Source of the DNA: Acidobacteriota bacterium
Lineage (GTDB): Bacteria; Acidobacteriota; UBA6911; RPQK01; JAJDTT01
Direction of reading: 5' to 3'
DNA length: 64,000 nt
Assembly: GCA_965209055.1 (NCBI GenBank)
Contig: OZ242374.1
Coordinates: 6,013,183 to 6,077,182 of the forward strand
Shown here: positions 13,663 through 34,183 of the stretch, one piece after another
Layout: every line of letters begins with the position of its first letter
Numbering within the stretch: the first letter of the stretch is position 1
Position numbers and translations under genes: made by a program
The notes under the pieces: model-generated
What the model saw: only the letters and a program-made list of their open reading frames with translations
Databases searched by the model: none
What the model was told of the DNA's origin: nothing

Positions 13663-13750
13663 TGGAGGGGGGACTGTTAGTCCGGCGCTCTGCCCAACTG
13701 AGATACGGGATTTATCCTTTATTTTCAATAGTTTAGACCGATTCTCCCCT

Positions 13751-14839: not shown

Positions 14840-15159
14840 ATGCATCTCCTCCTTTCTGGATCCGGGTTCTTCGCCGTGAGGAGAATCCTACCACGGCTCC
14901 AAGAGAATCAGCATAGGCGTTCAAGTCTTCCAAGGCGAAGACGCGGTGGCCGGCGGGGTCAATCTGGACCGTGGACCGGTTGCAGCCCGTGTGTTAGGGG
15001 TGACCTGTCCCTGGTAGCTTGAAATCCCTGGAACTTGGAAAATCCATCTGCCATCATGAGAGCCTAATGGGCTGTCACGGTGATGGAAACAAAGCAGTGA
15101 CTGCGGCCGCAATCCCATTGGATCTTCCATAGAAGGCGGCTTTTGGGTGTGGAGGAAAA

Positions 15160-15528
15160 ATGCGCCTGAATTGGATCAAATGTGTGGAAGACAAGTGGTG
15201 CCCGTTTCTTACAGTGAATCTTGATCATCCTCACTTTGACGGTCTCGGTGGCGTCTACGTCATCTGGCACGGAGGTAATGGCTGGCACGGAGGCAGCGAC
15301 CCGTGGACGGTTTACGTGGGGAGTGGACATATTTCCGCTCGTCTCGCGGAACATCGAACGAACCCAAACCTTCTCAAGTATTCCGACCGAGGGCTCTTTG
15401 TTACTTGGGCAATGGTCGCCCCGGAAAGTCAGAGGGGTGTAGAGGCGTATCTGGGTGATGAACTGGGCCCGCTGGAGTCCATTCGTCTTCCTGACGCTAC
15501 TCCTATTCCTGTCAATCTTCCGTGGTAG
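15160..15528 (+). CDS. Small GIY-YIG-like protein
   Basis: GVYVIW...VYVGSG.ISARLAEH pattern, later E in VEAYL; GAGGA RBS. Confidence 0.55.
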   Translation: MRLNWIKCVEDKWCPFLTVNLDHPHFDGLGGVYVIWHGGNGWHGGSDPWTVYVGSGHISARLAEHRTNPNLLKYSDRGLFVTWAMVAPESQRGVEAYLGDELGPLESIRLPDATPIPVNLPW

Positions 15529-15538
15529 ACCGTTTCGC

Positions 15539-15877
15539 ATGGGACCTGGACAAGACCCCAAGGTAGTTACTCACCCAGCTCCAACAATAGTAATCTACCA
15601 AGTCACCGATGAAACGCTCCAAAGAATTGAAGAAGGAGTCTCCCAAGCGGGACCTAGTTCAACACTTGCAGGAACGACCTTGACCATCTTCGTAGCTCTC
15701 TGCATCGCAATTGCCACCACGAGTCCTTCACCTTTTTGGCGAACACTTTTCATCATCGGCATATCTATTTCGGGCATCCTTTGCGTTGTGGGGTTTTCGC
15801 AATGGAGGCGTAGTCGCAAGACTGTTCATCAAGTCATTGAAAGAATCCGGGAACGAAAAGACGACCCCAACGCTTGA
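15539..15877 (+). CDS. Small two-transmembrane protein
   Basis: Two hydrophobic helices followed by a basic tail; follows the GIY-YIG-like gene closely. Confidence 0.55.
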   Translation: MGPGQDPKVVTHPAPTIVIYQVTDETLQRIEEGVSQAGPSSTLAGTTLTIFVALCIAIATTSPSPFWRTLFIIGISISGILCVVGFSQWRRSRKTVHQVIERIRERKDDPNA

Positions 15878-16398
15878 TGGAGACTCATGGTCGTTGTTCT
15901 TTCCCAGATTGGAGCGATTGTTATTTGGGTCCTCTTGTTGAAGTCCTGAACCAAGCACCCCCTCCACCTCTGATTCCGCTGGCCCTGCTTGGTCCCAGCC
16001 ACATCCATCTAACCCTGAAGTGTACCCCAGTGATGGAGGCGGGTCTGTCCGAATTGCTCCCGGTTTCAAATCAGGACACTACGCTTTTCTGCAACCTGCA
16101 AGGCGCGTAGCGCGCGGACCGGCACCATTGTCGCCGGGTCCCATTCGGGATAGAGTCTGCAATGATGACCGTGCTTCCGGCCTGCTGCCCCGCTCCGGTC
16201 GCTCCATTCTTTTCGCGGGACGGCAGCCGAACCGGAACATTTTGATCCCGGTTGACAATGAAACAGAACGTATGCGTTTTGCCCTCGCGATGGTGTGCGT
16301 GCTGACACTGTTGAGTTACCCACGCCGGGAGAACCGAGGAAGACGACCTTGTTCCCTGAAGGCTGTAGAATCCGACAACACCTGTCCTGAAGGAAAGC

Positions 16399-17241
16399 AT
16401 GCCGCATACTGTTTGTGACCTCCGCTCTTGGGAGGAGTTAGAGGAGGAACTGAAAAAACTCCAGGAGCACTCGCTTGAACAGCGCCACTCAGCACCCCTG
16501 ACGTTTCTGTATCGTGGGCAGGAAAACTCTTGCTGGCCCGTAAAGACAACGCTTGAACGATGGGCGGAGGGGCGAGAGGTTTCGTTCCGGCGATACTATG
16601 AGTTCATTTACCGAGTAAAGCCAGAGCTTGAGAGCTTCACCGAAGAGCGTTGGGATATCCCGGACCCCCAAGAGGTAGAACGCCTGACAAAACGTCGCGA
16701 GCCTTTTTCTTGCGATACGGCGAAAGCCTTCAAAACTTGGGGGCTAGTTGGGAGCTACATGGTGCACTTGCGCCACCATGGGTTTCCCTCACCTTTCCTC
16801 GATTGGACTCGTTCACCCTATGTTGCGTCCTTTTTTGCTTTCCGGCAACCGATCAGGGATGCGAAAAAGGTGTCTCTTATCGTTTATCGAGAAATGCGAA
16901 ATCCATCCGAGCATCCCAAGGTCTACTCTAGTGACTGGCCGGAAATATACATCCTGCCAAAGCTATACTCACCAACGCACCGAAGGCACTTCCTTCAGCA
17001 GGCGGAGTACACATTTTGCGTACAAAATAAGAAGAGCAAATGGCACTTTGGGCCACATGAGAGTGCACTCGGGCGGGGCGATTCCAATGTAGACGTCATT
17101 TGGAAGTTCAATCTCCCCGTAACCGAACGCCTGAAGGTTTTGAAGTTACTTGACAGGTCTAACATGAATGCGTTCTCGCTGTTTCAGTCTGAGGAAAGCC
17201 TAATGGAGACTGTGGCGTTTCGAGAACTGGATTGGCTGTAG
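16399..17241 (+). CDS. FRG domain-containing protein
   Basis: FLYRGQ and RHHGFPSPFLDWTRSPYVASFFA motifs; lower GC than host. Confidence 0.85.
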   Translation: MPHTVCDLRSWEELEEELKKLQEHSLEQRHSAPLTFLYRGQENSCWPVKTTLERWAEGREVSFRRYYEFIYRVKPELESFTEERWDIPDPQEVERLTKRREPFSCDTAKAFKTWGLVGSYMVHLRHHGFPSPFLDWTRSPYVASFFAFRQPIRDAKKVSLIVYREMRNPSEHPKVYSSDWPEIYILPKLYSPTHRRHFLQQAEYTFCVQNKKSKWHFGPHESALGRGDSNVDVIWKFNLPVTERLKVLKLLDRSNMNAFSLFQSEESLMETVAFRELDWL

Positions 17242-17527
17242 TTTCCATGGAAGCGTGGCGCTCACGGGGCCAGGGACAAGGATCAGCATCGAGCCACACG
17301 GAAACACGGGTCAGAAGAATTTCACCCGGGATGTTGGCAAGTCCCCATTCGGTTCTGCCAAGTCGACACAGTGCCCTATTGGCACAAGTGCGAGTACTTG
17401 AGACACCGACCAGTTTGGGTGGACACGGACTGCCAAGACAATCCTCCAACAGAATGGCGACGCTTAGAGCTAAGTCGTACGAGGACTGGATTTTGGCATG
17501 CACGGTCGGATGGTGAAAGGCAATGAG

Positions 17528-17700
17528 ATCGGGGAAAGCGGATTTGTGAATCACCGGGACCGCCATTTGTGAATCCACCCTGCGTGTCCCATTCACACTC
17601 CCGGATCGGCACGAGACCCCCTTTGCGCCCTGCCGAAACGAGTCCTCGTCAGCCTTTATGCCGGCCAAGTGGCAGTCGCCGTCGAGATCGAGCCGAAGGG
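17528..17700 (-). repeat. Second, partial copy of the element backbone (TGTGAAT repeat region) inside E1
   Basis: Aligns by eye with 27995-28150, 41460-41590, 53120-53270 and 61820-61960. Confidence 0.75.
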
Positions 17701-17981
17701 CGATCCGCGAGTTGAAGGGTTGCTCCGGCGTCTTCATGTCCCGAACGGTGAAGACGGATCCACCGGCAGGTCAACTGGTAGGAAGAATTCGACCTTCCAA
17801 GGCATTCCAAGGAAGCCCAGAAGCCGTCGCGCCTGCTGACACCGCCGCCTGCGGCGTGTCGAATCCCCCCGGCGGGATTCCCGTGAAGTCTGGTAGAGGG
17901 TTCGGGAGGATCGGAGATTGAGGGCGGCGGAGTTGCGCACGGACCCCGTCGGCTCACCATCCGGGCAGCCCCGACGAGGGC

Positions 17982-18773
17982 TTACGGGACCGTCTGGGAC
18001 CTTCCCCATCCCTCGTCAGCAAGACGGGTGCAGTTTAGCTCCTCGACACGGAGACGCCACTGGGGCATCACCCGGTCCAAGATCTCCCGGAATCGGTCGT
18101 TGTGCGTGGGTTCGACGAGGTGGGCCATCTCGTGCACGACGACGTACTCGATGCAGGAAAGCGGCTTCTTGGCCAGTTCGGAGTTGAGCCAGATGCGGCG
18201 GGCCGGAGCGTTGCAGGTTCCCCAGCGTGTCTTCATGCGCCGGATGCGCCAGTCGGCCACCCGCACCCCGATCCTCGGCTCCCACTTGGCGGTCCACGCC
18301 GGGATACGCTCGCGGAGCCGAGCCCGGTACCATGCGTACAGCATCGCCTCGCGGGAATCGCGACCGGTAGGAGGACGGACCCGCATTTCGATCCAGGCGT
18401 TGCCCCTCACCCGCACGCCGGTCGGGCCGGGCGATTCGATCACGTCCAGCCGGTAGCGCCGGCCCTCGAAGTAGTGACTCTCGCCGGACACGAACTCGCG
18501 GCGGGACTGGCGCTCCTGCTTCAGGAACCCGTCGCGTTTTCGCCGAATCCAGGCCAGCCGCGATATCACCGCCAACCGCACGGCCTCGTCGTCGAGGCGC
18601 AACGGGGCGGCAACGCGCACCCGTCCCTCCGGGGGGTAGACGCCCAAGTGCAGGTGCTTGATGTCCTTGCGGACGACCTCGACGGAGATGCCACCGACCT
18701 CAATGTGCGCGGATAGAACCGATCTCCGGGAACTGGCGGGGCGGGAGGTCGGCCCGTGAAAATCAGTATTCAT
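17982..18773 (-). CDS. M48/YgjP-like (DUF45) metallopeptidase-domain protein associated with type I R-M
   Basis: MKTRWGTCN and YVVVHEMAHL (HExxH); directly downstream of hsdR. Confidence 0.85.
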   Translation of the reverse strand: MNTDFHGPTSRPASSRRSVLSAHIEVGGISVEVVRKDIKHLHLGVYPPEGRVRVAAPLRLDDEAVRLAVISRLAWIRRKRDGFLKQERQSRREFVSGESHYFEGRRYRLDVIESPGPTGVRVRGNAWIEMRVRPPTGRDSREAMLYAWYRARLRERIPAWTAKWEPRIGVRVADWRIRRMKTRWGTCNAPARRIWLNSELAKKPLSCIEYVVVHEMAHLVEPTHNDRFREILDRVMPQWRLRVEELNCTRLADEGWGRSQTVP

Positions 18774-21700
18774 TCCGTGCCTTCACGATGTCGAAGGTCG
18801 CGGCCGCGTTGGCCCCGTAGGCACCAAGCGCCTCGTGGATCGCCTTCCGGATGAGCGTCTCCTTGATCGGGTGGCCGCGCCACCCGTCCATCCGAGCCTT
18901 CCGAACCGCCTGATCGACGGCCAGCGCGACGGACTCGCGTGTGCCGGTCCCAGGTTCAGTTATCGTCATCGGCGGCTCTTCCGGGAGGTTGTCGTAGATC
19001 GCGCGCAAGGCTGCGGTGTCGATGTTCGCTGGACGCGACCCGCCGTCCTCGCCGCACTTCACCTTCGCGGCCAGCGCGCTCACCCGCTTCAGGTAGTCTC
19101 CGTACGCGATCACCTCCTCGCGCCGTTGCCGGATCAACTCGTCGAGCAGCCTGGACATCCGTTCGTAGTACTTCGGGTTGACGGACATCTCATCCACGAT
19201 CAGGCGCCGGACGTTGTTCTCGATGGTTTCCGCGACGGCGCGGCGGTTCCCCCGGATCCCGTCGGGCAGCGAGTCTACGGCGTCCCCGGCGCGTTCGACA
19301 AGGAGATCGACGAGCGTCATGTCGTCGAAGGTGGAAAGAACCCCGGAGTCGTCGGCCCGGATGTAGGCGTCCAGAAGATGCCGCATCGCGGGCTCGAACA
19401 TTTTCAGGTCCACGAAGTCGCCGCTGTTCAGTTTGACCTCTTGACGGACCTTCTCGTAGTGGTCCACTTCGTCCCGCGTGTCCCTCCGTTGGGCCTCCGT
19501 GTAGCCCGCCGCGATCATCTCGTTGGCCAGGTCCGCGTAGCTGCGGAGGAACGCGGCGACGAGCCGGTAGAGGGTGAGGCGCTTGCGTTCGTTCGCGGCC
19601 AGTTGGCGAGCCGCCTCCTCACCGTCGCCCGTGCCGTCCTGGCAGAAGTAGCGCAGGTACGCTGCGGTATCGCGGGGCGGGTCGACCCCTTCGCAGAGCG
19701 CCCGAACCGCTTCGCGGGCCTCTTCCAGCCGCTCCCGCCCCCGTTCCAGGCGATCCGTCAACAGCTCTTCTACATCCTCGCGGCTGTAGCCCTCGAAGGC
19801 TTCGCCCGTGTAGTCCTGGATCGCGCCCTCCAGCGAGCGGAAGAGGTCCCTGTAGTCGATGATGTGGCCGTACTCCTTGTCCTCGCCATCGAGGCGGTTG
19901 ACCCGGCAGATCGCCTGAAACAGAGCATGGTCCTGCATCTTCTTGTCGATGTAGAGGTACGTCGCGGGCGGGGCGTCGAACCCGGTCAGCAGCTTGTCCA
20001 CGACGATCATGAGCTTCATTTGCGCTGGGTCATTCACGAACCGTCGCTTGACCTCCTGCTCGAACTCATCGGCCTTGTGCATGGCCGTGTCCTCGGACTC
20101 TCCGAAGTGGTCTGCGAGCATGCGCCGGTAGACCTCGTACTTGAGCAGTTTCTCGGCCGGACCCTCCCCGGGGTCCTCGCCCGCGATGTCGCTGGCAGCC
20201 GGCTGGTATGACGTGATGATCGCGCACCTGCCCTTCAGGTCGGTCGCACTGAAGCGCTGAAAGAAGCGGCAAGCTGCGTAGATGCTGTCGGACACGAGCA
20301 TGGCGTTGCCCCGCCCGCTTTTCAGCCGGTCGCGCGTTTCCATGTCCATGAGGATGTCGTCCACGATCTTGTCGATCCGTTCGCGCGAACTCGTGACCTT
20401 CCGCATCGTGCCCCAGCGCTGGCGGAGCTGCGCCTTGGCAAGGTCGCTGAGCCCCTGGGTCTTGAGGTCGAACCACTGGTCGATCTTCGCCTCGGAGGTC
20501 AGGTGCTGGTCGATGTCGCGCGCCTCGTAACGCAGGTCGAGTACCACCTTGTCGCGGATCGCCTCGTCGTACTTGTAGGTGTGGATATACGGGCCGAAGG
20601 TCTCGATGCTGCGCGGCTTGTCGGACTTGAGCAGCGGCGTTCCCGTGAAGCCGATCAGGGTGGCCTCGGGCAGGAGTTTCTTCATCGCGCCGTGGAGTTT
20701 ACCGGACTGTGTGCGGTGGCATTCGTCCACGAAGACATAGATGTCTCCGGCGGGGCGAAAGCCGCCGGAGATGTGGGCGCGAAGGTCGCTCACATAGCGG
20801 TCGATGTCGCCCTCTTCCGAACGGCCGAACTTGTGGACGAGCGAACAGATCAGCGACTTGGCGGGATCGCGAAGGGCCTCGGCAAGGTCCGCACCGCTCT
20901 TCGTGCGGTGGATGTCCTCGTCCACGCCAAGAAAGACCTTCTCGATCTGCTCGTCGAGTTCCTTGCGGTCGGTGATGACGAGCACGCGGCCATCGGTAAC
21001 CTTCTCGCGGATCCACTTCGCGAGCCACACCATCGTGAGGCTCTTCCCGCTGCCCTGGGTGTGCCAGATGATCCCCCCATCCCGTCGCTTCACATGGGAT
21101 TGCGCTGCCTTCACGCCGAAATACTGGTTGTGACGGCAGATCTTCTTGGTGCCCGCGTCAAACACCACGAAGTCGTGGACCAGTTCGAGGAGACGGCCCG
21201 GTGCACAGAGGTCGGCGAGTTCTTGGAGAAGGGACGAAGCGGCGTTCGACGCGGGTGAAGACGCGGCAGCCTCCTTCCAGCGCAGCCAGTACTTTTCCGG
21301 TGTGCCGACCACGCCGTAGCGGAGCCCCTGCGTGTCGTTGCCCGCCATCACCAACTGCACGGTGGTAAAGAAATGCGGGATGAAGTGCTTCTTCTGGTTG
21401 GCCAGGTTCTGGCGGATCCCCTCGGCCACCGACACGGTCGAGCGCTTGAGTTCGATGACCCCCAGCGCGATGCCGTTCACGTAGAGGACGAGATCGGGCC
21501 GCTTGGTGTTCCGGCCGCTGACCGTGACCTCTTCGGCGATGGCGAAGTCGTTGGCGAACGGATTGCTCCAGTCGATCAGATCGACGGTAACTGCCTTCCT
21601 GCCGACTCCGGGACTCACCTTCACGCCGTACCGGAGGAGGCCGTAAACGTTCCGGTTAGCTTCGTAGAGCGTGCGGCTTCCGCCCAGTGCGGCGGCTTGC

Positions 21701-21900
21701 TCGAGCTTCGCAATGGCCTTCGCGATCAGACTCGCGGGATGGCCGCCGCGCTTGAGAAAACGGGTGAGGATCCGGGACTCCACGTTGCAGTTGCCGTCCC
21801 GGTCCTGCCAGTCGCCAAGGTAACGGTAGCCGAGACTGTCCCGGAAGAGCGCGATGACCCGCCGTTGCGTTTTGATCTCCTTTTCGCCGACGGGGGTCAT
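18763..21900 (-). CDS. hsdR: Type I restriction endonuclease subunit R
   Basis: RPDLVLYVNG..IELK nuclease motif, HTQGSGKS Walker A, DECH, FTGTP, LLTGFDAP, QAICRVNR; start ATG at 21900. Confidence 0.95.
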   Translation of the reverse strand: MTPVGEKEIKTQRRVIALFRDSLGYRYLGDWQDRDGNCNVESRILTRFLKRGGHPASLIAKAIAKLEQAAALGGSRTLYEANRNVYGLLRYGVKVSPGVGRKAVTVDLIDWSNPFANDFAIAEEVTVSGRNTKRPDLVLYVNGIALGVIELKRSTVSVAEGIRQNLANQKKHFIPHFFTTVQLVMAGNDTQGLRYGVVGTPEKYWLRWKEAAASSPASNAASSLLQELADLCAPGRLLELVHDFVVFDAGTKKICRHNQYFGVKAAQSHVKRRDGGIIWHTQGSGKSLTMVWLAKWIREKVTDGRVLVITDRKELDEQIEKVFLGVDEDIHRTKSGADLAEALRDPAKSLICSLVHKFGRSEEGDIDRYVSDLRAHISGGFRPAGDIYVFVDECHRTQSGKLHGAMKKLLPEATLIGFTGTPLLKSDKPRSIETFGPYIHTYKYDEAIRDKVVLDLRYEARDIDQHLTSEAKIDQWFDLKTQGLSDLAKAQLRQRWGTMRKVTSSRERIDKIVDDILMDMETRDRLKSGRGNAMLVSDSIYAACRFFQRFSATDLKGRCAIITSYQPAASDIAGEDPGEGPAEKLLKYEVYRRMLADHFGESEDTAMHKADEFEQEVKRRFVNDPAQMKLMIVVDKLLTGFDAPPATYLYIDKKMQDHALFQAICRVNRLDGEDKEYGHIIDYRDLFRSLEGAIQDYTGEAFEGYSREDVEELLTDRLERGRERLEEAREAVRALCEGVDPPRDTAAYLRYFCQDGTGDGEEAARQLAANERKRLTLYRLVAAFLRSYADLANEMIAAGYTEAQRRDTRDEVDHYEKVRQEVKLNSGDFVDLKMFEPAMRHLLDAYIRADDSGVLSTFDDMTLVDLLVERAGDAVDSLPDGIRGNRRAVAETIENNVRRLIVDEMSVNPKYYERMSRLLDELIRQRREEVIAYGDYLKRVSALAAKVKCGEDGGSRPANIDTAALRAIYDNLPEEPPMTITEPGTGTRESVALAVDQAVRKARMDGWRGHPIKETLIRKAIHEALGAYGANAAATFDIVKARNEY

Positions 21901-23474
21901 GGCTTGGTTGATTCGGATTCGAGGATTTCCCAGCGCCCCTTCTTGGTCGGTCCCACATGACGGATGCGACCCGCCTTCCGGAGCTTGTCGAGATGGTATT
22001 TGACGCCTTCCGGCGTGATCCCGATTCGGGAGGCCAGGGCGACGCGCGTCAATGTCGGATCCCTTCGCAGGAGAGCGAGAATGCGGTCGCGGGTAGGCAT
22101 CGAATCTGGCTTGCGGCCTTCTTGGGCAGCTTCGCCGGTTTCCTGGGTAGTCTCGGCGAGTTGCTGGGTAGTCTCGCGGCCTTCTTGGGTAGTCCCTCGC
22201 TTGGCGCCTTGGGTTTCTTGGGTGGCCGCGCGAACGGAGCCAAGCTGCTTGCCATTGCCGCCCGCCCGCAAGATTCGGGTGATAAACCCCGCGCCCGCCT
22301 CGAACTCGGGCTCCGGCAGGCCCGCCTCTGCGCAACGCCGGATCATGTCCACCGTCCCGGTTCCCATCTTCTCGATGTAGCGGAGCAGGTACATTGACTC
22401 CGCGATCAGCGGATTGGCGGGCAGCGACTGGTGCGCCACGCGCAGTTTCTCCACCGTAAGCGGCGGCGGCAAGCGGCCGGAGTTCATGACCTCCAGCCGG
22501 TCGGCGAAGAGCATTACCTGAACACTGCTGTTGTCGGTGTAGTCCCGGTGCGCCACCGCGTTGACGATGGCCTCCGTCACGACCTCCTTCGGGATCTCGT
22601 AGGCCACAGGGGCTTGGACCGTCTCCGCCCTCGTCCCAACGGTCAGAGCGATCTTGCTCAACACGAAGTCCACCGCTTGATCCACAAGCTCGAAGACCGT
22701 GCCCTTGTACACCTGGTGGGAAGGGATCGGCTTGGCGACCTCGGTTCCGTGGAAGTGCGCGCACTTGACCTCGGAAGAGATCAGGAAGCGTTGCGGGGTG
22801 CTGCCGAACAGCAGCACGGCGGCGTTCGTGAGCCGTCCCCGGTTCAGCAGGTTCAGGTGCCTGAGCAGGTCCGCTGGCGGAGTCCCCTCCGGCAGTGGGA
22901 ACTGCCGCGATCTTCGCGCCTCGCGGATGAAGCGGTACATGCCCTCGACGTTCAGGTCGTCAAGTGTGGCTCCCGAGCAGCCGGACGCGTCGAACGGCCC
23001 GAAGCGCAACATTTGCCTCGCTTCCAAGTACTGGACGAGAGCGGCGTACAGGCCTGCCACCAACTCGGCCCGGGTAGCGAAACGCCTTCTCACCAGACCA
23101 GCTTGCGCCCTGCCGATCAGTGCCCACATCTTCGGGTGCCGCTCGGCTCCCTCGGAGCCCTTCAGAAAGATCAGCCGGTGCTTCTCCAGATCGGTGGCCC
23201 GGTCGAACTCGCGCTCGGTGGGCGAGATTCCGTTCCCGTCCTCGAACCCGTAGTCTGTACCGAATAGGCCAACGTAGATCTCGCACCGCTCGACTTCGCT
23301 CAGATAGACCTCGTCGGGTCTCCGGTCAGAAGCCGAGACGTCCTCGAATAGGAAGACTTCAAAGAAACGCCGCATCATCGGATCGCCGCGCAGGTAATCA
23401 CGCAAATGCTCCCGCTCCCGTGCGAACTCGTACTGGACACTGCTGATGAAGATCCGGATCGGCGTCATTGGCAC
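21897..23474 (-). CDS. DUF4062 + RecG-C/HATPase-like + wHTH protein
   Basis: RIFISSVQ.EF..ER N-terminus, EAIVNAVAHRDY, IEKMGTG, C-terminal HTH ending GPTKKGRWEI. Confidence 0.8.
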   Translation of the reverse strand: MPMTPIRIFISSVQYEFAREREHLRDYLRGDPMMRRFFEVFLFEDVSASDRRPDEVYLSEVERCEIYVGLFGTDYGFEDGNGISPTEREFDRATDLEKHRLIFLKGSEGAERHPKMWALIGRAQAGLVRRRFATRAELVAGLYAALVQYLEARQMLRFGPFDASGCSGATLDDLNVEGMYRFIREARRSRQFPLPEGTPPADLLRHLNLLNRGRLTNAAVLLFGSTPQRFLISSEVKCAHFHGTEVAKPIPSHQVYKGTVFELVDQAVDFVLSKIALTVGTRAETVQAPVAYEIPKEVVTEAIVNAVAHRDYTDNSSVQVMLFADRLEVMNSGRLPPPLTVEKLRVAHQSLPANPLIAESMYLLRYIEKMGTGTVDMIRRCAEAGLPEPEFEAGAGFITRILRAGGNGKQLGSVRAATQETQGAKRGTTQEGRETTQQLAETTQETGEAAQEGRKPDSMPTRDRILALLRRDPTLTRVALASRIGITPEGVKYHLDKLRKAGRIRHVGPTKKGRWEILESESTKP

Positions 23475-24763
23475 GGTCCGTTTTCGTAGACAGCATCCTG
23501 GATCGGAAGTCGAATCGAACCGGTAAGAAGCTGCTGCATCATGCCCTGCTTGAGGGCGCGCGTCTTGTCGCGACGCCGGTCTAGCGCGGCGATCTCCGCG
23601 TCCATGTCTGAGAGGGCGGCGGCGATAGCCCGCTGCTCTTGGGGGGGCGGGAATCGAAGCTCCGCAGAGGCGATATGGGCGCGGTTGGTGGCGTACACTT
23701 TCGTGCCGGCCGCGAGCCTCCGGAGATGATCCCGGAATCGGGGGAAAAACTGCAAGTACGCCTTGAAGCCGTCGGCGAGCACCGCCTTATTGAACCTCAC
23801 CGCGATGGTGTGCAGTCCGGATACGAGTTGGTGACCCTCGCTCCCCATGATCTCGATGGACTTTCCCACACCTCCAACGTCCTCGGAAGCGTCAACGAAC
23901 ACGAGGTCTCCGTCGCTCAACCGATCAAGCCTTCTAGCATAATCCTTCGCCAAGGCCGGCAAAGCGGTGGCCGTCGGGTCAAGGTACACACGGGCGGATG
24001 TATGGATGTCTCCATAATGGAGGTACTTCACTCCACCGCCGACTTCGCCGTTAGGCGCGAGGTAAGAGCGTGGGAAGCTACCATGCCGAAGGAATCGGAG
24101 ATGGTTCCCCAGCCGCCTCGTCTCCCACTCACCTCGGAACCCCGGCAGCCGGGTCCTGCCGGTCAGAAGTTGCTGCATCGCCGCCTGCTTGATTGCCCGC
24201 TTCTTGGCGATCAGCGCCTCCAGCGACCCGATCAGGGCGTCTACGTCCATGAGGACGGCGGCGATGGCCCGTTGCTCGTGGAGGGGTGGGAGGGGGATAA
24301 CATGCTGATGAACGTCATTTCGATTCAGCGTTGGAACCCCGGAACCGGCGAGAAACCGAGCAACGCGGATATGGGTGTACAGGTAATAGATGAATCGCGG
24401 ATCGTTGCGACGATAGGATACAACCCAGAGAGCCGTGTTGTGTGGCCAATAGTCCTCCGCCACGAAGTGTACCTTGCCGATTGTTCCAGATCGTCCCGTC
24501 ACCACACCTGGGCCCTTCACCATAGCGCGGTTGTGGCGTCGCAAAATTCCGTTGGAATAGACAACGGGGTAACGTCCTGATCGGACTTGCGATGTAGGGA
24601 GATCGAATCCTCGCTGTAAGGGAGCAACATCACGGAGCGCCTTCGAGGCCCAGCCCGCCGGAAAGACGACCGCCTCGGAGCTTTGGCACCGTACGGCTTC
24701 GACCGGCGCATCCGCCGCACGGTTCGAGGCAATGGCTATGCTGCGCCCCCGTCCTTCACTCAC
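23465..24763 (-). CDS. hsdS: Type I R-M specificity subunit S
   Basis: Two TRDs with repeated PP..EQRAIAA.L.D.D and K.A.KQ..MQQLLTG conserved regions. Confidence 0.9.
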   Translation of the reverse strand: MSEGRGRSIAIASNRAADAPVEAVRCQSSEAVVFPAGWASKALRDVAPLQRGFDLPTSQVRSGRYPVVYSNGILRRHNRAMVKGPGVVTGRSGTIGKVHFVAEDYWPHNTALWVVSYRRNDPRFIYYLYTHIRVARFLAGSGVPTLNRNDVHQHVIPLPPLHEQRAIAAVLMDVDALIGSLEALIAKKRAIKQAAMQQLLTGRTRLPGFRGEWETRRLGNHLRFLRHGSFPRSYLAPNGEVGGGVKYLHYGDIHTSARVYLDPTATALPALAKDYARRLDRLSDGDLVFVDASEDVGGVGKSIEIMGSEGHQLVSGLHTIAVRFNKAVLADGFKAYLQFFPRFRDHLRRLAAGTKVYATNRAHIASAELRFPPPQEQRAIAAALSDMDAEIAALDRRRDKTRALKQGMMQQLLTGSIRLPIQDAVYENGPCQ

Positions 24764-24853
24764 TGCCGACCCACCTACACACGGATTCTGCAGACGCTGT
24801 CTGCGGAATCTCGCCGAACGGTGCGTCTCGACGCTCGAACCGGAGCGGACGGC

Positions 24854-27300
24854 TCATGTCGAGAGCCCCATTCGCCTAAGGTGACCCTCGACCATGGTGC
24901 CGTAGTCGTCAACCTGACGCACGAGCTCCGGCAGCGCCTCGGAATACCGCGCTTCAAGCACCGTGATCCGTTCCACGAGCCCGTTCGTCAGGCGGTCCAC
25001 CTGCCGGCCGATCCCGTCCTCCAAGCTGGCCATCCACTTGCCGCGCACCACCATGTTGGCGACCTCTGATGGAGTCAGAGCCACGTATCGCACTAGTATT
25101 TCCGCATCAAGCAAGGCTTGCGCATCCTTCGCTGCTTTCTTCGCCTTGGCTTCCGCCTTCATGAGATCCAGGCAGACCTCCAACGCGTCGCGCTCGTCGG
25201 GATTCCCGGAGCCACCGCGAATCTCCTTGAGCCGAGCCCTTACGGCCGTCTGCGTCACCTTCCCGGTGTCCGTCGTGGCACCGTGCAGCAGCCCGTCCTG
25301 CCCGTGTTCTCTTCTACAAACGCCTCCACCTCGCGCCCGATCTTCTCCTGCTCGCCCAGCAGGGCCTCCACCTCGCGCTGCTCGTCCGCGAAGTAGCGGC
25401 CGGCCACAAGATCGGGTGGAAGCAGGTCCATCTTGTACTTCGTGCGCCTGACCGTCAGGTCGGGAGACTCACCCGCTTGCCGTTTCCCGACCAGCACTCG
25501 CGGCCGCGCCGCCTCCGACCAACCGCCGGTCACCACTAGGTACAGGTCGTCCTGCATGACCTCGTCCCAGTAGTCCATCAGACATTGGTAGACATCGTAG
25601 GGGTCGATGAGTGGAAGATCGGCGAAACGTCCCAGTAGATCCTCGGATAGCTTCCCTATCAATGCCCTCGGGGATTCGCCCTCTCCGAGTCCGTATAAAC
25701 GGGACTCATGCTCACGCCACCAATCGTCGAAAGCGCTCCACACTCGCTCCCGGTACGCCGTGAATTCATCATGTCCGAGAACAACTACTCTGACCTCGTC
25801 CGGAGACCTGCACGCTTCGCTGTATCCCGGACGGCCACCCGGCACGAACAACGCCCGCCGCAAGCCGGGTAACACCTTCCAATAGCGGTCGAGAGCGTCG
25901 ATGTCGGGGTCAGGGATCCCTCCATGGAGGTGCGCGCCGAGGTCGTGAAGATCCTCCGGCTCGCCGGAGTCGATGTAACGGGGGATGTTAAGGTTGTAGT
26001 CGTTTGCCTCGCTGGCGATCTCGTCGAGTGGCACCATCCGCGCGTAGCCGGGCGTGTCGCGCTGGTCGTTGAAGACATCGACGATGCGGTGAATGTCGCG
26101 CTCGCGGAGACGGTTCTTGGCGCCGTCCTTACGAAAGCCCCCGCTGGCATCCACCATGAAGATGCCCTTGCGGGTGGCCGCGTCCTCCTTGTCGATCACA
26201 ACGATGCACGCCGGGATACCGGTGCCGTAGAAGAGGTTGGCGGGCAACCCGATGACACCCCGGATAAGTCCGCGCCTGACGAGATTGCGGCGGATGCGAG
26301 CCTCGCGGTTGCCGCGGAAGAGTACCCCGTGCGGGAGGATGATCGCACCCTTGCCCGTGCTCTTGAGCGATGCAACGAGGTGAAGGAGGAAGGCGTAGTC
26401 GCCATTTTTCGCGGGCGGGATGCCGTACTCGAATCGGCGGAATTCGTCGTGGTCCGGATCGAGACCGTTCGACCACGCCTTCGTGGAAAACGGAGGATTG
26501 GCGACGGCGAAATCGAATCGCTTCAGGCGTCCGGGGCCGTCGGTGAATCGCGGTGCGGCCAGTGTGTTGTCGCGCTTGATCTCGGCTGCCACGTTACCGT
26601 GGAGGATCATGTTCATGCAGGCCATGGTCCACGTCGCGACATCCATCTCCTGACCGTAGATCGTCAGCCCGTTCGGTGCTTCGTCCGCCGCCTTAATGAG
26701 GAGTGACCCGGAGCCACAGGTGGGGTCATAGACGGCGCGGTCGAGGCCGGTGTCCGCGTCGATCCCGACCACCCGGGCCATGATGCGTGAGACCTCGGCA
26801 GGGGTGTAAAACTGCCCCTTGCTTTTGCCGGACTGCGTCGCAAAGTGCCGCATGAGGTACTCGTATGCGTCGCCAAGGAGGTCGTCGCCCTGGGCGCGAT
26901 TCGCCTGGAAGTCGAGCCGCTCGAAGATCCCGACCAGCTTCGTGAGCCGGTCTGTCATCTCCCGGCCCCTGCCGAGCTTGCTCTCGTCGTTGAAGTCCGC
27001 TTGGTCGATCACGCCCTTGAGGAGGAAGTCGTTGGTGTCGGCGAGCTTCCGAATAACGACGTTGATGCCGTCGCCGATTTCCTTGCTCCCCTTGAGTGCC
27101 ACCATGTCCGCGAATCCGCCCCCGGGCGGCACCTTGATCTCGGAATACTCGTCGTCTGCGCCCGAGTACTTGTCCGAGACGTACTTCATGAACAGCAGCG
27201 TCAGGACGTAATCCTTGTACTGCGAGGCGTCCATGCCGCCACGGAGCTGGTCGCAGCTCTGCCAGAGCGAGGCGTGCAGTTGGGACTTGCGCAGGGCCAT
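24854..27300 (-). pseudogene. hsdM: Type I R-M methyltransferase subunit M with a single-base frameshift near the 3' end
   Basis: GQFYTP, YDPTCGSG, NPPF; one missing base near 25299 separates ENTG from (E)DGLLHGATTDTGKVTQTAVRARL. Could be a sequencing error. Confidence 0.85.
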
Positions 27301-27824
27301 GGTCGGCTCAACTTCCTGGCGCGGGCGGGCGCCGTGCGGGCACTGGACCACAACCTTCGAGCCGGCACAGGGATCGGAGGAAACGAGTCGCCCCGCCCCG
27401 GTCGGAGAACGGCGCCCCGCCGGGCCGGATCAGACGCTGGGACGTGTCTCCCCCGAGGACGTCGCGTAACAGGTCGGCCACTGCCCGACGGGAATTCGGA
27501 ACCTCGGTCTTGGCCATGCCTCAATTTAGCATGTCGGGCCGGGCCAGTCCGGTGCGGCTTCCGTGTCGGGATCGGAGCAGGGCGTCAGACGCCGGCTGCG
27601 GCGATGACAAGCTGCACCCGCTTCTTCGTGGGCACGAACAGCACTGCCAGCAGTCCCAGCCCGATCAGTGCGTATTGAACGCGGACCGCCGAAGCGAGCA
27701 CCGCCAGGCAGGCAGACCACCACGCCGTCCAGGCATCTTGCGCGGACTGATGCGCCATCAAGGCGAGCACTGCCAGCAGCAGTGCCCAGGAATCTTCGCA
27801 GGAGCCTTCCCGCCAGGGATATTT

Positions 27825-27925
27825 TGGACGGGAGCGACCCCACCAGGGAGTGTTGCGCAGATGTGAATTGCGCAACACCCCCGCGCCCGCACCGGGCAGC
27901 AAAAAGGGGGGGTCGCTCCCGTCCA
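27825..27925 (-). other. Conserved branched hairpin module (E1 copy)
   Basis: Outer stem TGGACGGGAGCGACCC/GGGTCGCTCCCGTCCA enclosing GTGTTGCGCA/TGCGCAACAC and GCCCG/CGGGC hairpins. Confidence 0.8.
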
Positions 27926-28058
27926 CCTCCATTTTCCCCGTGCGGCCACCCGGTGGCCGGAAATGGGGCCGCAACTGACTGAAAGGAAACAAGCTCGGGG
28001 AGAGTGCATTTGTGAATCACCGGGACCGCTTTTTGTGAATCCACCCCCCTTGTCCCAT

Positions 28059-28400
28059 TCACATCCCGGATCGGGCGCGAGACCCTCTTTTCGCACTGCC
28101 GAAACAGCCCTCAATCAGCCTTTGCGACTGCCAAGTGCGTTCACCGCCAATCACGACCTGGAAGGAGTAACTTTCCGCCGTTGTTTGCCGCTCGACCGAC
28201 TGCTTAAGTGCGGCCGTAACCCGGCCGTAGGAGTTGAGCAGGCCTTGGTCGGTCGAGTGCCCCGGATCGACACGGACGAAGACGGTCCGGTCCGCATCGA
28301 CGGCAAGCGGCGGCTTGAGCGCGAAGTCACGTAGGGTCTTCCCCACCGCCCCCGGCACACGCGCCGAGGAAGCCGTTGCCAGTGGACAGCGAGTGTGTCA
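28059..28400 (-). pseudogene. Remnant of conserved backbone gene (GAVGKT.R.FALK.P.AVD.DRTVFVRVDP)
   Basis: Homologous decayed reading frames in E2 (41207-41525), E3 (53187-53345) and E4 (61545-61898). Confidence 0.6.
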
Positions 28401-29794: not shown

Positions 29795-29875
29795 CTGAGG
29801 AAAAGCTGTGGGAAGGTCGTTGGGAAACCTGTTAAGTTCTTGTGTATCAACTGTTTACGGACGATTTTTGTTGAC

Positions 29876-30769
29876 ATGCCAAGTCTAGCAACCTACCCTG
29901 ACGCCGTGTTAACGGAGTTCCCGGTCTCTCGACTTCCTGCCGTCAATGTCGCGCAGGTTCCTCAGCGTAGCCCGTTGAGGTATCCCGGGGGGAAAACGTG
30001 GCTGATCCCGCACATTCGGGAATGGCTCAAATCCGCAAGCGCGGAGATTCTGATTGAGCCCTTTGCCGGAGGCGGAATTGTCTCCCTGACAGCCGTGATG
30101 GAGGAACTGGTCGAACAAGCCGTGATGGTCGAGATTGACCATGATGTCGCGGCGTTCTGGCACGCGGCCCTGAGAAACGGACGCCGGATGGCGGATCAGA
30201 TCCAAGAGTTCAATCCCACCAGAGAGACGCTTATCGAGTGGGAAACTAGCCGCCCGCAGTGCGTCAATGAGCATGGCTTCCAGACCCTGGTATTCAACCG
30301 CACTCGACGCGGCGGGATCCTCGCTTCGGGAGCGTCCTACATGAAGCAGGGAGAGAACGGGCGGGGAATACTGTCTCGCTGGTATCCCAAGACACTGGCC
30401 CGGAGACTGGCCGAGATCGAACGCCACGCAAGCAAGATCATCTTTTGCGAGGGGGATGGCCTCAAGCTACTCCCGCCTCTATTGCAGGGATGGGGAGATC
30501 GGGCCGCCGTGTTTCTCGATCCTCCGTACACGGCTGGCGGGAAACGGGCGGGACGGCGCCTCTACACGGATCACCAAGTGGACCACGCCGAACTATTTTC
30601 CATACTGGCATCGTCCGACGCCGACTTCCTGATGACCTATGATCTATCACCCGAAATCGTGGAGCTGGTCGAGCAACACGGGTTTCACGCCGTCGCCGTG
30701 GTGATGAAGAACACCCATCACAACCGCATGGCGGAAATCATCATCACTCGGGAAAGCCTCTTCGAATGA
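29876..30769 (+). CDS. D12-class (Dam-like) amino-methyltransferase
   Basis: SPLRYPGGK, EPFAGGG, DPPY. Confidence 0.9.
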   Translation: MPSLATYPDAVLTEFPVSRLPAVNVAQVPQRSPLRYPGGKTWLIPHIREWLKSASAEILIEPFAGGGIVSLTAVMEELVEQAVMVEIDHDVAAFWHAALRNGRRMADQIQEFNPTRETLIEWETSRPQCVNEHGFQTLVFNRTRRGGILASGASYMKQGENGRGILSRWYPKTLARRLAEIERHASKIIFCEGDGLKLLPPLLQGWGDRAAVFLDPPYTAGGKRAGRRLYTDHQVDHAELFSILASSDADFLMTYDLSPEIVELVEQHGFHAVAVVMKNTHHNRMAEIIITRESLFE

Positions 30770-31617
30770 TCCGCTACGGGATCTCGGAGTGGTTCGGGCG
30801 TCCGTTCCTGTCCCTGAGTCCAAGTCAGAGACAATCCCTCGCCAGAGCTGCATTGCGCCACGATCCAGTCCCGCCCTGCCCCTTTCGTCGTGGATTGCCG
30901 GACTGCACCAAGAGAGGCGGAGTCTGTTCCATCCAGGAGTATCAGGGGGAAGGAAGCCGGATTGGAACGCCTACCGGTAATCCGGTGAGCGTGTGTCCGT
31001 ACCGCTTCGAGGAGCGGGATATCTCGGCTCTATGGCTGGCCGAGATCGTGGACTTTGGCGAGGTCTACATGGCTCGGGAAGTGCCCTTCATGGAGGGTGT
31101 GACCACCGGGAAACCCGCAGGGAAGATTGACTTGGTCCTGTCGAAAGACGAGGTGGCGTCAGAATGGGTCGGGCTGGAAATCCAGGCCGTCTACTTCTCT
31201 GGAAAGGCAATGGACAACGACTTCAACGTCCTGCTCACTGATTCCGGTGATTCGCCCCCTATGGCCACGAAGAGCCGGAGGCCGGACTGGAGATCGTCCA
31301 CAAAGCGGCTGCGATATCAGTTGGAGGTAAAGGTTCCGACGCTGCGAACGTGGGGAAAGAAACTCGCGGTTTCGGTGGACCTTCCCTTCTTCAACTCTAT
31401 CGGGGGACCAAGTTCTACACCATCACACGATCTGAACGAGGGTGACATTCTCTGGATCGTTCCCCTGATTGACCTGGACCGCGGCTTGGTCCGCCACCAC
31501 TGGGAAGTCCTTTCCCTGGAGGCATCCAGCCGCAAGCTGCTAGATGCCGCGCCCGTTAAACGTCGAGACTTCGAGTCTTACCTGCGCCGGAAGCTGGCAC
31601 GACTGGAGACGCAATGA
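30766..31617 (+). CDS. NotI-family type II restriction endonuclease
   Basis: Four-cysteine motif CPF..CTK.GGVCS..CPYRF, IDLVL, LEIQAVY, RPDWRSS; ATGA overlap with the methyltransferase gene. Confidence 0.8.
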   Translation: MIRYGISEWFGRPFLSLSPSQRQSLARAALRHDPVPPCPFRRGLPDCTKRGGVCSIQEYQGEGSRIGTPTGNPVSVCPYRFEERDISALWLAEIVDFGEVYMAREVPFMEGVTTGKPAGKIDLVLSKDEVASEWVGLEIQAVYFSGKAMDNDFNVLLTDSGDSPPMATKSRRPDWRSSTKRLRYQLEVKVPTLRTWGKKLAVSVDLPFFNSIGGPSSTPSHDLNEGDILWIVPLIDLDRGLVRHHWEVLSLEASSRKLLDAAPVKRRDFESYLRRKLARLETQ

Positions 31618-31823
31618 CCAAGCGAAAGAAGCCGAAGATCAAAGACGGGCGGACCATCGAACTGGTGAAGCACACCTACCAGCCGAACAAGGCCGAACTG
31701 GAGGAGGAGTTCAGCGTAGACGTTCCCGGTGCGACGGCCCTGGAGAAGTTCAAGCGGCTCACCCGTGCGATGGTGCAGCCGGTCAACGCTCGGCTGATCT
31801 CGAAACCGAGGAACCGGCGTTGA
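31614..31823 (+). CDS. Small basic hypothetical protein at the IS1595 right end
   Basis: ATGA-coupled 69 aa ORF ending just before the right IR. Confidence 0.55.
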   Translation: MTKRKKPKIKDGRTIELVKHTYQPNKAELEEEFSVDVPGATALEKFKRLTRAMVQPVNARLISKPRNRR

Positions 31824-31855
31824 GCCGGAATCTGGAACTTTCGTATATAATCCCC

Positions 31856-32221
31856 TTTCATTTTGCCAATAGAGATTCTCCATTCGGCCATAGCTTCCCA
31901 TGCGGCGTCGAGATCGTTGCGATCATCGGACAGTTCCACGGCGAACTGTTCATTGGCCGCTTTGTATTCAGGACCGTGAGCCCATTCTTCATTCATACGG
32001 TCAGCAATGGAATTACCCCGTTCAGTGAGTAGCTCTTCCTGCTTCGCCAGAAAGTCTTTCGTCTCTTCGAATATTGCCAGGTGAAGTTGCTCGGTATTCC
32101 CTTTGCGAATGCAAAGCTGTATGGTGTCGCGCACGATCTGTTGGGCAGTCATTTGTTTCTCTCCCCCCGCGCCCCCCTCTCTTCCAAGGGAAAGTTGAGT
32201 CGTGAGTTTTTCGTGGTCCAT
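31856..32221 (-). pseudogene. Hypothetical gene interrupted by the IS1595 insertion
   Basis: Frame reads ...ISIGKMK at the TSD and resumes as MKRSAPIAP...QVR* at 28735-28657. Confidence 0.55.
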
Positions 32222-32253
32222 ATCTGTCCTTGGTAGTACCTATCAGGGGCCGC

Positions 32254-32772
32254 CTAGTCCGCCGTCCCAAAACTCACCCACTTCCCCTCGTGGCAGTAGT
32301 AGGCAACAGCGGCCTTGTCGAGGAAGTAATCGTTGATGGCATCGTGGGTGCGCCTCTCGGGCAGTCCCTCGTCCATCTTGAAAAGAGGACCGACGTCAGG
32401 GGGGAGTGAACTGATGACGCACGAGTACACCATTCCGAACTCACCCCACCCCTGAGTGCAACCGCTATCCGGACTCGCCCTGTCCAATACGCGGTTGCAC
32501 TGCGCTCGTCCTCCCCAAAGGACGATGGTCTCCGACTGCCCATCCCGTGAACAGATCGCTGCCCAATCGGTCTGACCGGGCGCGGCGAACTCGCCGGAAA
32601 TGATGTTCAGGGGTCTGCCAGACTTGAACGTGAAAAACGAGTGGGGCTGCGGGATCATGCAGCCCATTTCGTAGAATTCCTCTCTGATGTAGGCAGGCAC
32701 CTTCTCGAAATCGAGCGGCGACATGTACTTGATATTTGGTGTCAACACCAGCAACGGCAGGAGCAGCAACAT
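32254..32772 (-). CDS. Exported hypothetical protein
   Basis: Hydrophobic N-terminus, several cysteines, NIISGEFAAPGQTDWAAIC; lies 13 nt after the peptidase gene. Confidence 0.65.
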   Translation of the reverse strand: MLLLLPLLVLTPNIKYMSPLDFEKVPAYIREEFYEMGCMIPQPHSFFTFKSGRPLNIISGEFAAPGQTDWAAICSRDGQSETIVLWGGRAQCNRVLDRASPDSGCTQGWGEFGMVYSCVISSLPPDVGPLFKMDEGLPERRTHDAINDYFLDKAAVAYYCHEGKWVSFGTAD

Positions 32773-32785
32773 GAGGGCGTTCCCC

Positions 32786-33565
32786 CTATTTCGTCAGGTG
32801 CCAGTGGTCGGGTTTGCCAGGACCAGACGGATGCACGGCCACCGTGAACCCCAAGCTCCTGGCGGTACTCTCGAAGTAGGTTCTTTCCGTGCTGGACATT
32901 TCGCTTCGGTTCATGTCCACGTTATGACCCGTTTGGTGGGTGATGTGCGGTGTCGTCCAGTTGTCGTTGATATCGAATAGGCCACCCGTCGGTAGGCTCA
33001 TGTCGTTCACATGGAGGGGCTTGTCGAACCTCCCATAGAATGCGCGAGCCAGAGCCTTTATGCCGTTCACCAGAGTGGCGGTGCCGTAGTGGTTGCCAGG
33101 GTGTTCGGTCGTGCTCCCTTGAAGCGTGATGTAGGTGGAACCCAACAGCGGCGTAAGACCGATTAGAGCCACATTGTTGAAATCGGTGTCTATCGTGCCG
33201 TCACTGAACACCCCTCTCTGCCGGATCATACCCGCTGCGGAAGGTGCTGTGAACGTCACCTTCACGTTCTGAGGGTTTGGTCCGTAGAGCGTGATTGAGG
33301 ATGGACTGACCGACCCGACTGGTCCCCCTGAGTGGTGATGGCCACCTGTGTTGGGCAACCGGTCCAGGCTGATATCCACGCTGGCCCCCTCCAGGCCACT
33401 GACGTACCAGAGATTGGTGCCGCCTGGGTCGCAGGTCTTGGTAGCGCCCTGCGGTACTCGCTTGTAACTCTCTCTGATTTCGTAGGGAGAGATTACTGCG
33501 CAGGGTTTAGAGACATCGATGATTTCTGGGTGGTTGTAGTTTGCAACCTCGGACCTTTCGGACAT
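32786..33565 (-). CDS. Protein with C-terminal MepA/M74-like (LAS) Zn murein endopeptidase domain
   Basis: VNDMSLPTGG, HITHQTGHNVD (HxxHxxGxxxD) and DHWHL (HxH) motifs; AAGGA RBS. Confidence 0.7.
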   Translation of the reverse strand: MSERSEVANYNHPEIIDVSKPCAVISPYEIRESYKRVPQGATKTCDPGGTNLWYVSGLEGASVDISLDRLPNTGGHHHSGGPVGSVSPSSITLYGPNPQNVKVTFTAPSAAGMIRQRGVFSDGTIDTDFNNVALIGLTPLLGSTYITLQGSTTEHPGNHYGTATLVNGIKALARAFYGRFDKPLHVNDMSLPTGGLFDINDNWTTPHITHQTGHNVDMNRSEMSSTERTYFESTARSLGFTVAVHPSGPGKPDHWHLTK

Positions 33566-34183
33566 TCCTTGGTTCCTCCGATCTGCGGTTCTAGTTATCT
33601 AGAGAGGCGCCTGGCCCCAACAGCGGTGCCGGTGCTCCAAGAACTTCGAATGTAATACTGTTCTGGATTTGTACATATCTTGAAGTGCCCAACCGGACAA
33701 CGCCTCTCCTAAGACCGAAATGCGGCGGCGGACGTTGTGGTGAACTTTTGGCCTTGGCGAACCGCACGCCGTAGCAGGAGTGCCGAAACCTCCCCGCCGC
33801 CGGGACCCGAAATCTATCAAGGACTATTTCAAGACGCAAAATAGACTGATGACGGAGGGGGGAGGGAAGCTTGTTAAGTTCAATAATTAATCCCCGATCG
33901 ACACAGCACCATGTGTTCCGAATCTGGGGGACAAGAGAAAACGGGAAGAGGAGTCAGTATTCGAGAGCCAATGCTGCTGCCTGTTTGTTGCCTGTTCAGG
34001 ACGTCGAACGTTGGGAGTCAACCACTTTACTGATTCGGCGAAGAACCCGGTAATCCATTGAAAACGTTAATGTTCGGTAGTCTTTGACTGTGGAGCAATC
34101 GGGACTGTTAGTCCCCCCGTCTTCTTCCGTATTGTTGTGCGATTCGGACGCGGGAAAGCGTAGAGCGGGGACTGCCGTTTCCC

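Follow-up and report, generated by a model that had tools for sequence, protein, structure and literature searches.

A 14-nucleotide box shared by the integrase leader and the far attachment arm of a mobile element family in an acidobacterial genome

Whether a mobile element stays or moves depends on the control of integrase expression, and to our knowledge this control is understood in detail only for a handful of phages and of ICEs (integrative and conjugative elements) of model bacteria. The locus described here raises the question of why the same 14-nt sequence, termed the box below, occurs in inverted orientation both directly upstream of the integrase gene (int) and in the distant attachment (att) arm of each element. 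The window analyzed is a stretch of 64,000 nt from an Acidobacteriota bacterium (GenBank assembly GCA_965209055.1, contig OZ242374.1, positions 6,013,183 to 6,077,182 of the forward strand). It forms the final 64 kb of one 6.08-Mb contig and contains four elements, E1 to E4; its genome is called G000 in the comparisons. A first-pass annotation had offered two explanations for the two copies, either pairing of the int mRNA with its own complement after circularization, reminiscent of lambda sib retroregulation, or binding of a directionality factor or repressor at both.

The answer favored here is that the box is the site of one trans-acting DNA-binding protein, which would be used twice per element; judged from comparative sequence evidence, this reading is given an even chance of being correct. 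The box would tie the start of the int message to the recombination arm, and it is conserved and covaries across deep lineages of an element family of uncultured bacteria that has 27 copies in a single genome and carries restriction-modification cargo. It offers a concrete starting point in the search for the directionality-setting factor of the family. The RNA mechanism, if true, would be a new kind of state-dependent control and more novel than a protein site.

Occurrence and placement of the box

The annotation had reported the box at eight sites of the window, and exact copies of GGCGAAGAACCCGG were found at all eight, with coordinates that agreed to within 1 nt:

14862..14875, minus strand: leader copy of E1, exact match, 20–26 nt upstream of the int start
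42524..42537, plus strand: leader copy of E2, exact match
47279..47292, minus strand: leader copy of E3, exact match
62824..62837, plus strand: leader copy of E4, exact match
34037..34050, plus strand: far-arm copy of E1, exact match, inverted relative to the E1 leader copy, 50 nt from the core
41010..41023, minus strand: far-arm copy of E2, exact match
55316..55329, plus strand: far-arm copy of E3, exact match
61348..61361, minus strand: far-arm copy of E4, exact match

All four leader copies are located directly upstream of an int ribosome-binding site (RBS). When up to two mismatches were allowed, the window contained 14 matches to GGCGAAGAACCCGG, compared with a mean of 1.55 in 100 shuffled sequences, none of which reached 14. 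The whole genome has 51 exact copies, and with at most one mismatch 79 matches were found versus 7 for a backward control pattern. Sorting of the copies with up to two mismatches by their flanks yielded 29 of the leader type and 28 of the far type. They form 27 leader/far pairs with a spacing of 1.4–24 kb, and the two copies are inverted in every one of these pairs. Both copies are exact in 24 pairs, and a single-base difference occurs in the other three. We regard the finding as real, solid in its statistics, and of biological meaning.

The box had also been described as conserved despite a decayed backbone. Within G000, this description held only in part, as the flanks of both sites are likewise conserved to 76–100% in the 28–29 copies, and the element copies are 87–100% identical to one another. 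Across lineages it did hold, with the box standing as an island between flanks that cannot be aligned. These results bear on a further explanation, namely, that the match between the two copies is without function and stems from an old internal duplication that was kept in this genome only because the 27 copies are young. The conserved flanks and the high identity of the copies in G000 speak for it. However, the box is also kept, and changes in step at both sites, where the integrases are only 38–53% identical and the flanks cannot be aligned, and a functionless duplication is regarded as very improbable.

A direct repeat, GGGACT(GTT or AAC)AGTCC(C/G), flanks each element, and int (Pfam Phage_integrase, E ~1e-26) reads toward one copy of this core. 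The genes and cores in the window are as follows:

13751..14845, minus strand: tyrosine integrase gene of E1 (Pfam Phage_integrase, 2.8e-26)
42558..43748, plus strand: integrase gene of E2, with an MGIYKVKD start
46170..47258, minus strand: integrase gene of E3
62859..63947, plus strand: integrase gene of E4
13670..13684, plus strand: int-side core of E1, direct repeat, similar to an anticodon stem-loop
34101..34115, plus strand: far-side core of E1, direct repeat
40945..40959, plus strand: far-side core of E2, direct repeat
43712..43726, plus strand: int-side core of E2, direct repeat
46089..46103, plus strand: int-side core of E3, direct repeat
55380..55394, plus strand: far-side core of E3, direct repeat
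61283..61297, plus strand: far-side core of E4; the int-side core of E4 lies beyond the window end

Three blocks are common to E1–E4. One consists of int and the roughly 105 nt upstream, another is 150–215 nt long and lies at the far end, and the third is part of a middle segment. The far copies of the box end 50 nt before the core GGGACTnnnAGTCC(C/G), in agreement with the annotation, which had placed them 50–65 nt inside the end. The TTACCG...CGGTAA hairpin around the far copy was also recovered in the alignment, with 7 bp in E2 and E3 and 6 bp in E4; the E1 sequence reads TTACTG, which results in a G-T pair.

Both att arms contain a tandem repeat, TGCCTGTTTGTTGCCTGTT, in direct orientation. 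The int-side repeat overlaps the last int codons, and the far-arm repeat is 86–100% conserved in the 28 far arms. Two of the far-arm repeats are:

55256..55275, plus strand: tandem repeat CTGCCTGTTTGTTGCCTGTT of E3, presumed arm-type sites of Int, also present as a direct repeat in the int-proximal arm over the Int C-terminus
33977..33996, plus strand: tandem repeat of E1, presumed arm-type sites of Int

The overlap of the presumed arm-type repeats with the last int codons was observed in three lineages (E3 46170–46200 and its equivalents; L065; L158), and the C-terminal peptides of the respective integrases (…ATNRQRAGN, …GGRQMGDT, and …RRVTNG) are in effect encoded by arm sites.

Arm-type sites are short repeats of both att arms, usually in tandem, that co-vary with Int. 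The tandem repeats of the TGCCTGTT type fit this definition, which the 14-mer, single and confined to the far arm, does not. The 14-mer is located 35 nt inside the tandem repeat, between the arm-type repeats and the crossover. The matching place in the int-proximal arms of E1–E4 reads GGTCTAAACTAT, GGCGTAAACCCT, GGCGTAAACCTT, and GGCGTAACCCCT, respectively, and the int-proximal arm has no conserved 14-mer. The idea that the box pairs delimit invertible or exchangeable cargo was rejected, because the conserved backbone runs 70–130 nt past each box, and the boxes are therefore not at the junction of cargo and backbone.

The leader copy and a putative int promoter

In relatives, the open reading frame (ORF) directly upstream of int encodes a small helix-turn-helix (HTH) protein, and six of the seven proteins tested were above the Pfam HTH_17 cut-off. 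The tail of this excisionase-like protein (…LEDL.AF(I/V)..LP.WY…) spans the 14-mer and extends into the int RBS. A tblastn search with the protein from G003 revealed an uninterrupted frame (residues 5–94) of the xis-like gene in 1 of 29 G000 copies. The remaining copies are truncated, frameshifted, or interrupted by stop codons, and several of them have in common a TAG that precedes the box by four codons. In E1–E4, no more than the last 12–35 codons are left. The remnant in E3 is:

47259..47366, minus strand: 3′ remnant of the HTH_17 xis-like gene of E3 (…RRVFTLEDLNAYVNSLDSWYDSPHGEEPG…), delimited by translation, tblastn with the G003 protein, and the extent of conservation; it contains a −10-like hexamer and the 14-mer

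Conservation of the box as coding sequence, i.e., as the G-E-E-P-G of the xis tail, was rejected: third codon positions are among the positions of the box that are invariant across lineages, and many copies have an ORF that is interrupted or terminates earlier (in L078, for example, it stops before the box). The exact 14-mer is nevertheless kept in 26 of the 29 G000 leaders. The invariant third positions, the broken frame, and the exactness of the box together show that it is the nucleic acid, rather than the protein tail, that is under constraint.

In 45 of 49 distinct leaders, many of which are close kin, a hexamer of the form TAnnnT precedes the box and ends 6–10 nt upstream of it. The rest of the 45-nt stretch before the box contains almost no such hexamers, and in this GC-rich genome the last T is retained whichever codon it closes (GAT, ACT, CCT, or CAT). 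All four box types described below have the hexamer; it is absent from the G010/G035 sub-lineage, from L068, and from L150, which is probably a chance match. Its positions in the window are:

47302..47307, minus strand: −10-like hexamer TACGAT of E3, ending 9 nt upstream of the 14-mer, with a putative promoter role
14885–14890, minus strand: equivalent hexamer of E1
42509–42514, plus strand: equivalent hexamer of E2
62809–62814, plus strand: equivalent hexamer of E4

We infer from this pattern that TAnnnT may be the −10 element of an int promoter that lies inside the old xis gene. If the hexamer is taken as a −10 element, the box would occupy about +1 to +14 of the int mRNA.

As a separate observation, the leader and the body of int are about 1.9 kb apart in three copies (genome 786078–784165, 3708107–3710022, and 5307983–5306068).

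Covariation across lineages and the nature of the box

Homologues of Int with 33–98% identity were found in 22 of 40 related genomes searched (23 of 41 including that of the window). Far arms were identified by similarity or by the motif together with tandem arm repeats. The covariation check that the annotation had proposed gave a positive result, as leader and far copies carry the variant of their own lineage across related elements. Four types of the box were distinguished:

Type I: leader GGCGAAGAACCCGG, far copy the same; arm repeats TGCCTGTT; in G000, G004, G005, and a G010/G035 lineage of 72% identity (far arms L125 and L126)
Type II: leader GGCGGAAAACCCGG; far copy GGCGGAAAACCCAG (L133–L136 and the copy in L067) or GGCGGAAAACCCGG (L140, L142, and L143), summed as GGCGGAAAACCC[GA]G; arm repeats TGTCTCCCA; in G009, G011, G013, G028, and metagenome contigs
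Type III: leader GACGGAGGACCCGG (L064–L066, L103, and L104), far copy the same (L138); arm repeats TGTCACCCG, which match the reverse complement of the type III int 3′ end; in G012 and G035
Type IV, incomplete: leaders GGCGAAAAATCCGG, GGCGAAAGATCCGG, and GGTGAAGAATCCGG; far copy GGTGAAAAATCCGG (L128 and L130); leader and far partners not linked

For types II and III, leader and far copies were matched by lineage, with a plausible 46-kb pair in one G009 element, and origin from the same element is not proven in every case. All differences of the box between types are transitions, and the purine/pyrimidine pattern RRYRRRRRRYYYRG is unchanged down to about 35–40% Int identity. The arm repeats (TGCCTGTT, TGTCTCCCA, and TGTCACCCG) change far more than the box across the same lineages. 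A search for a degenerate 14-mer in five relatives gave 15–28 matches per strand versus 3–12 for the control and was too noisy to pair sites.

The distance between the far box and the anticodon-like stem was nearly constant. It is 50 nt in G000, G003, and G035, and a hairpin script gave 50–51 nt for type II (L133 and L134) and 49 nt for type IV (L128 and L130). The type II interval contains two extra TTTCCTAAYG repeats that have no counterpart in type I. Because the intervening sequence is unrelated between types, it is the distance from box to crossover that is kept and not its content. The distance between the tandem repeat and the box varies among types.

A pattern scan of metagenomes was less informative. 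Eight of the 80 loci listed passed a filter for an int start, and L158 and L149 appeared leader-like by eye. The contigs of the leader loci among these 80 were too short for both ends or did not contain a far copy, and the other loci listed were chance matches or an unrelated gut gene. Contigs from four of 24 sequencing runs consisted of fragments only, and no att junction was bridged in them. In two metatranscriptome libraries, contigs of 2.5 and 4 kb have a match to only the 65 nt at window positions 41007–41071 (box and arm repeats), with 5 differences, and a separate match to part of int; related elements were thus present in the sample, and assembled contigs cannot show transcription.

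The second explanation of the annotation, a site for a directionality factor or repressor, fits the covariation as well as the RNA idea does, and several facts lean toward it. A protein site is favored because the two copies covary and the far copy has a fixed spacing of 49–51 nt to the crossover, and because the box is found in one arm only, among arm-type sites. Accessory sites of the lambda type likewise lie in one arm among arm-type sites, and the usual split is accessory-factor sites in one arm and Int arm-type sites in both. Further reasons are the operator-like position at the putative start site, the conservation of the sequence class over deep divergence, and the fact that, in published cases, recombination factors elsewhere (RdfS, TorI/IntS, and IHF/IntI) act at both att and a promoter. 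The leader copy would overlap the transcription start of int, so that a bound protein might serve as an operator-bound repressor and throttle int. At the far copy, in the int-distal ("P-like") att arm and 49–51 bp from the crossover stem, the same protein could bend or bridge the DNA within the recombination complex.

As the binder, an HTH_17 excisionase-like recombination directionality factor (RDF) would be the most likely candidate, followed by a host nucleoid protein and, last, by Int. The HTH_17 protein is encoded directly upstream of int in intact relatives; in G000 it would have to act in trans, because nearly all copies of its gene are broken. The low rank of Int deserves comment, as the box might be a second class of Int-binding site through which Int represses its own promoter and which Int also uses in the far arm. 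E2 and E4 are minimal forms of 2.8 kb that encode only Int. E2 (40945–43726) is 100% identical over 2782 bp to a copy at genome 4495132–4497913, and both of its flanks are unique; E4 (61283–64000) is 99.96% identical to genome 3004455–3007172, and the single E4 flank that the window includes is unique. Because of these near-identical copies with unique flanks, minimal Int-only elements with a broken xis must have moved very recently, and all cis sites required for movement therefore have to work with Int and host proteins. Autorepression by an integrase has been documented for IntS of KplE1 (PMC2951348) and IntI of PAI I536 (PMC7286903). However, the tandem repeats (TGCCTGTT and its lineage variants) already look like arm-type sites, co-vary with lineage, and do not resemble the 14-mer, and a single arm-binding domain is unlikely to read both the 14-mer and the tandem repeats. 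A second class of Int sites is therefore considered improbable.

Several observations weigh against the reading of the box as the site of an accessory DNA-binding protein. The 14-mer is single and non-palindromic, RDF sites are often tandem, and the binding protein is only a candidate. The xis-like gene is broken in all four elements of the window, yet E2 moved recently without an RDF of its own. Either the factor acts in trans, for which one intact-looking copy exists, or the role of the box is in integration and int expression rather than in excision. The consensus for integration host factor (IHF) of E. coli, WATCAANNNNTTR, has one match in the window (29845) and none in any arm, and this consensus may not apply to the phylum. 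A two-hexamer sigma-70 scan predicted no promoter in the leader region of E3; near the far arm it gave two matches, neither of which is related to the box.

The remaining points against a protein site are those that speak for pairing of RNA. According to this explanation, the 14-mer would form the 5′ end of the int mRNA, and read-through past the int stop codon and across attP on the circle would add the exact complement about 170 nt downstream. The resulting 5′–3′ panhandle could protect the message, silence it, or expose it to cleavage, and in the integrated state, host DNA would replace the trailer. For relatives that target tRNA genes, a complete tRNA gene would follow int, and its processing would cut the trailer off. 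In this way, its own transcript would tell the element whether it is integrated, and a protein may additionally use the DNA of the far copy; this combined proposal, like the sensor itself, is rated as rather unlikely.

The geometry claimed by the annotation was correct: int reads toward one att end, and a read-through transcript of the circle would gain the exact complement of the box. Strict inversion, seen in 27 of 27 G000 pairs and in every paired relative, and a box that starts at the predicted +1, 6–9 nt after the −10-like hexamer, are what pairing at an RNA 5′ end requires. A scan found no terminator-like site between the int stop codon and the core or in the far arm, and the 14-mer was paired when the 60-nt leader and the 192-nt trailer were folded together. 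In type I, the complement is located in the loop of the 6–7 bp hairpin.

The base changes are also suggestive. In genus-level copies, 9 of 10 single transitions are G·U-compatible. Five of the seven differences with a known partner are compatible as well (leader G9/far A9 in G003, leader G13/far A13 in type II, far A1 and leader T3 in G000, and far A14 in L105), and two are not (far T14 in G000 and far C6 in L105). Under a symmetric null, this skew has a nominal p of about 0.01 to 0.04, a value that comes from small post hoc counts with several orphan far arms and a possible mutation bias.

Other results do not favor the RNA explanation. When the full 1396-nt read-through RNA was folded, the probability of leader/trailer pairing was 0.043, and the minimum-energy fold paired the box with int nucleotides 774–788; long-range folds are unreliable. 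The duplex energy of −43.6 is within the range for shuffled trailers (mean −38.4, sd 4.2, minimum −51.9). Pairing explains neither the fixed spacing of 49–51 nt to the crossover nor the restriction to transitions across such deep divergence. Far arms of type II lack the flanking hairpin, and the duplex would leave the Shine-Dalgarno sequence uncovered.

Cargo, target sites, and known systems

The insertion target in G000 is a repeated G-rich palindrome, GGGGGGACTnnnAGTCCCCCC, that resembles a tRNA anticodon stem-loop. A hairpin copy that appears unoccupied is located at 9564–9578 between divergent genes, and the 15-nt core pattern has 49 matches in the genome. The int arm is similar to the 5′ half of a tRNA, and real tRNA-Arg genes are the targets in G003 and G010/G035. 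A boxed far arm directly behind int and a tRNA half was observed in a sister genus at L067 (G009), L047/L075, and L133 (G011); this arrangement is a junction of the attP kind, such as would arise if elements inserted in tandem into one tRNA gene. A model in which the orphaned promoter of a host tRNA gene drives an antisense RNA over the far box in the integrated state fits the geometry of G003. It was dropped as a general explanation, because the tRNA part is reversed in type II and the G000 targets are not tRNA genes.

A type I restriction-modification system, an IS1595 transposase, and a D12 methylase together with a NotI-like enzyme make up the cargo of E1, and E3 contains a type ISP enzyme and a trypsin-like protease:

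18763–22764: hsdR of the type I restriction-modification system in E1
23465–24763: hsdS of the same system
25255–27351: hsdM of the same system
29840–31617: D12 methylase and NotI-like endonuclease in E1
49090–52581: type ISP enzyme in E3

The cargo at 15000–33600 and 47800–55150 is mostly related to defense and also includes a DUF4062/ATPase-HTH gene and an FRG-domain gene. PSD1/PSCyt domains occur in the window as well. A search of the whole window against Rfam at gathering thresholds gave no matches. The middle segment was found at 61820–62153 (E4), 27804–28352 (E1), 41271–41780 (E2), 52930–53360 (E3), and 17507–17683. It has no Pfam match and no convincing ORF, and 94 BLAST pieces of it are spread over the genome, many of them outside integrase elements.

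Among known systems, lambda sib lies in the 3′ trailer as a self-contained RNase III hairpin and is joined to int only when the phage is not integrated, so that int expression depends on the integration state. The likeness suggested by the annotation is loose. It holds insofar as a sequence beyond attP and downstream of int is linked to it only in the non-integrated state. It does not extend further, as the far sequence complements the 5′ end of the mRNA, and its own hairpin is only 6–7 bp long in type I and absent in type II.

The arrangement is most likely of a known kind, an accessory-factor site common to an att arm and the int promoter. In ICEKp1, a tRNA promoter and a 3′-end promoter drive int from upstream, and expression differs between the integrated and the excised state (PMC13023037). 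Joining the element ends would rewire int transcription in both cases, but the int gene described here has a putative promoter of its own, and any action of the far end would come from downstream. In PAI I536, IHF and IntI act at PintI, so that a host bending protein used in recombination also damps the integrase promoter (PMC7286903). In contrast, the arms in the window contain no IHF consensus of the E. coli type, and the nucleoid proteins of this uncultured lineage are uncharacterized.

Two precedents are systems in which recombination factors also act on transcription. RdfS, a winged-HTH RDF of ICEMlSymR7A, binds attP and a separate promoter and thereby couples excision with the expression of rdfS and intS (PMC11963761). 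The HTH_17 protein resembles it in being a small HTH protein encoded beside a tyrosine integrase. RdfS, however, is described as binding long regions by indirect readout and without a consensus motif, whereas here a single, sharply bounded 14-mer is the putative binding site and is common to several lineages. In the KplE1 prophage, IntS and TorI repress PintS through sites in the att region (PMC2951348). The intS promoter of KplE1 overlaps attL, whereas the int gene described here reads toward att and starts about 1.1 kb from the core, and, unlike in KplE1, a dedicated second copy of the site is found at the putative start of the message.

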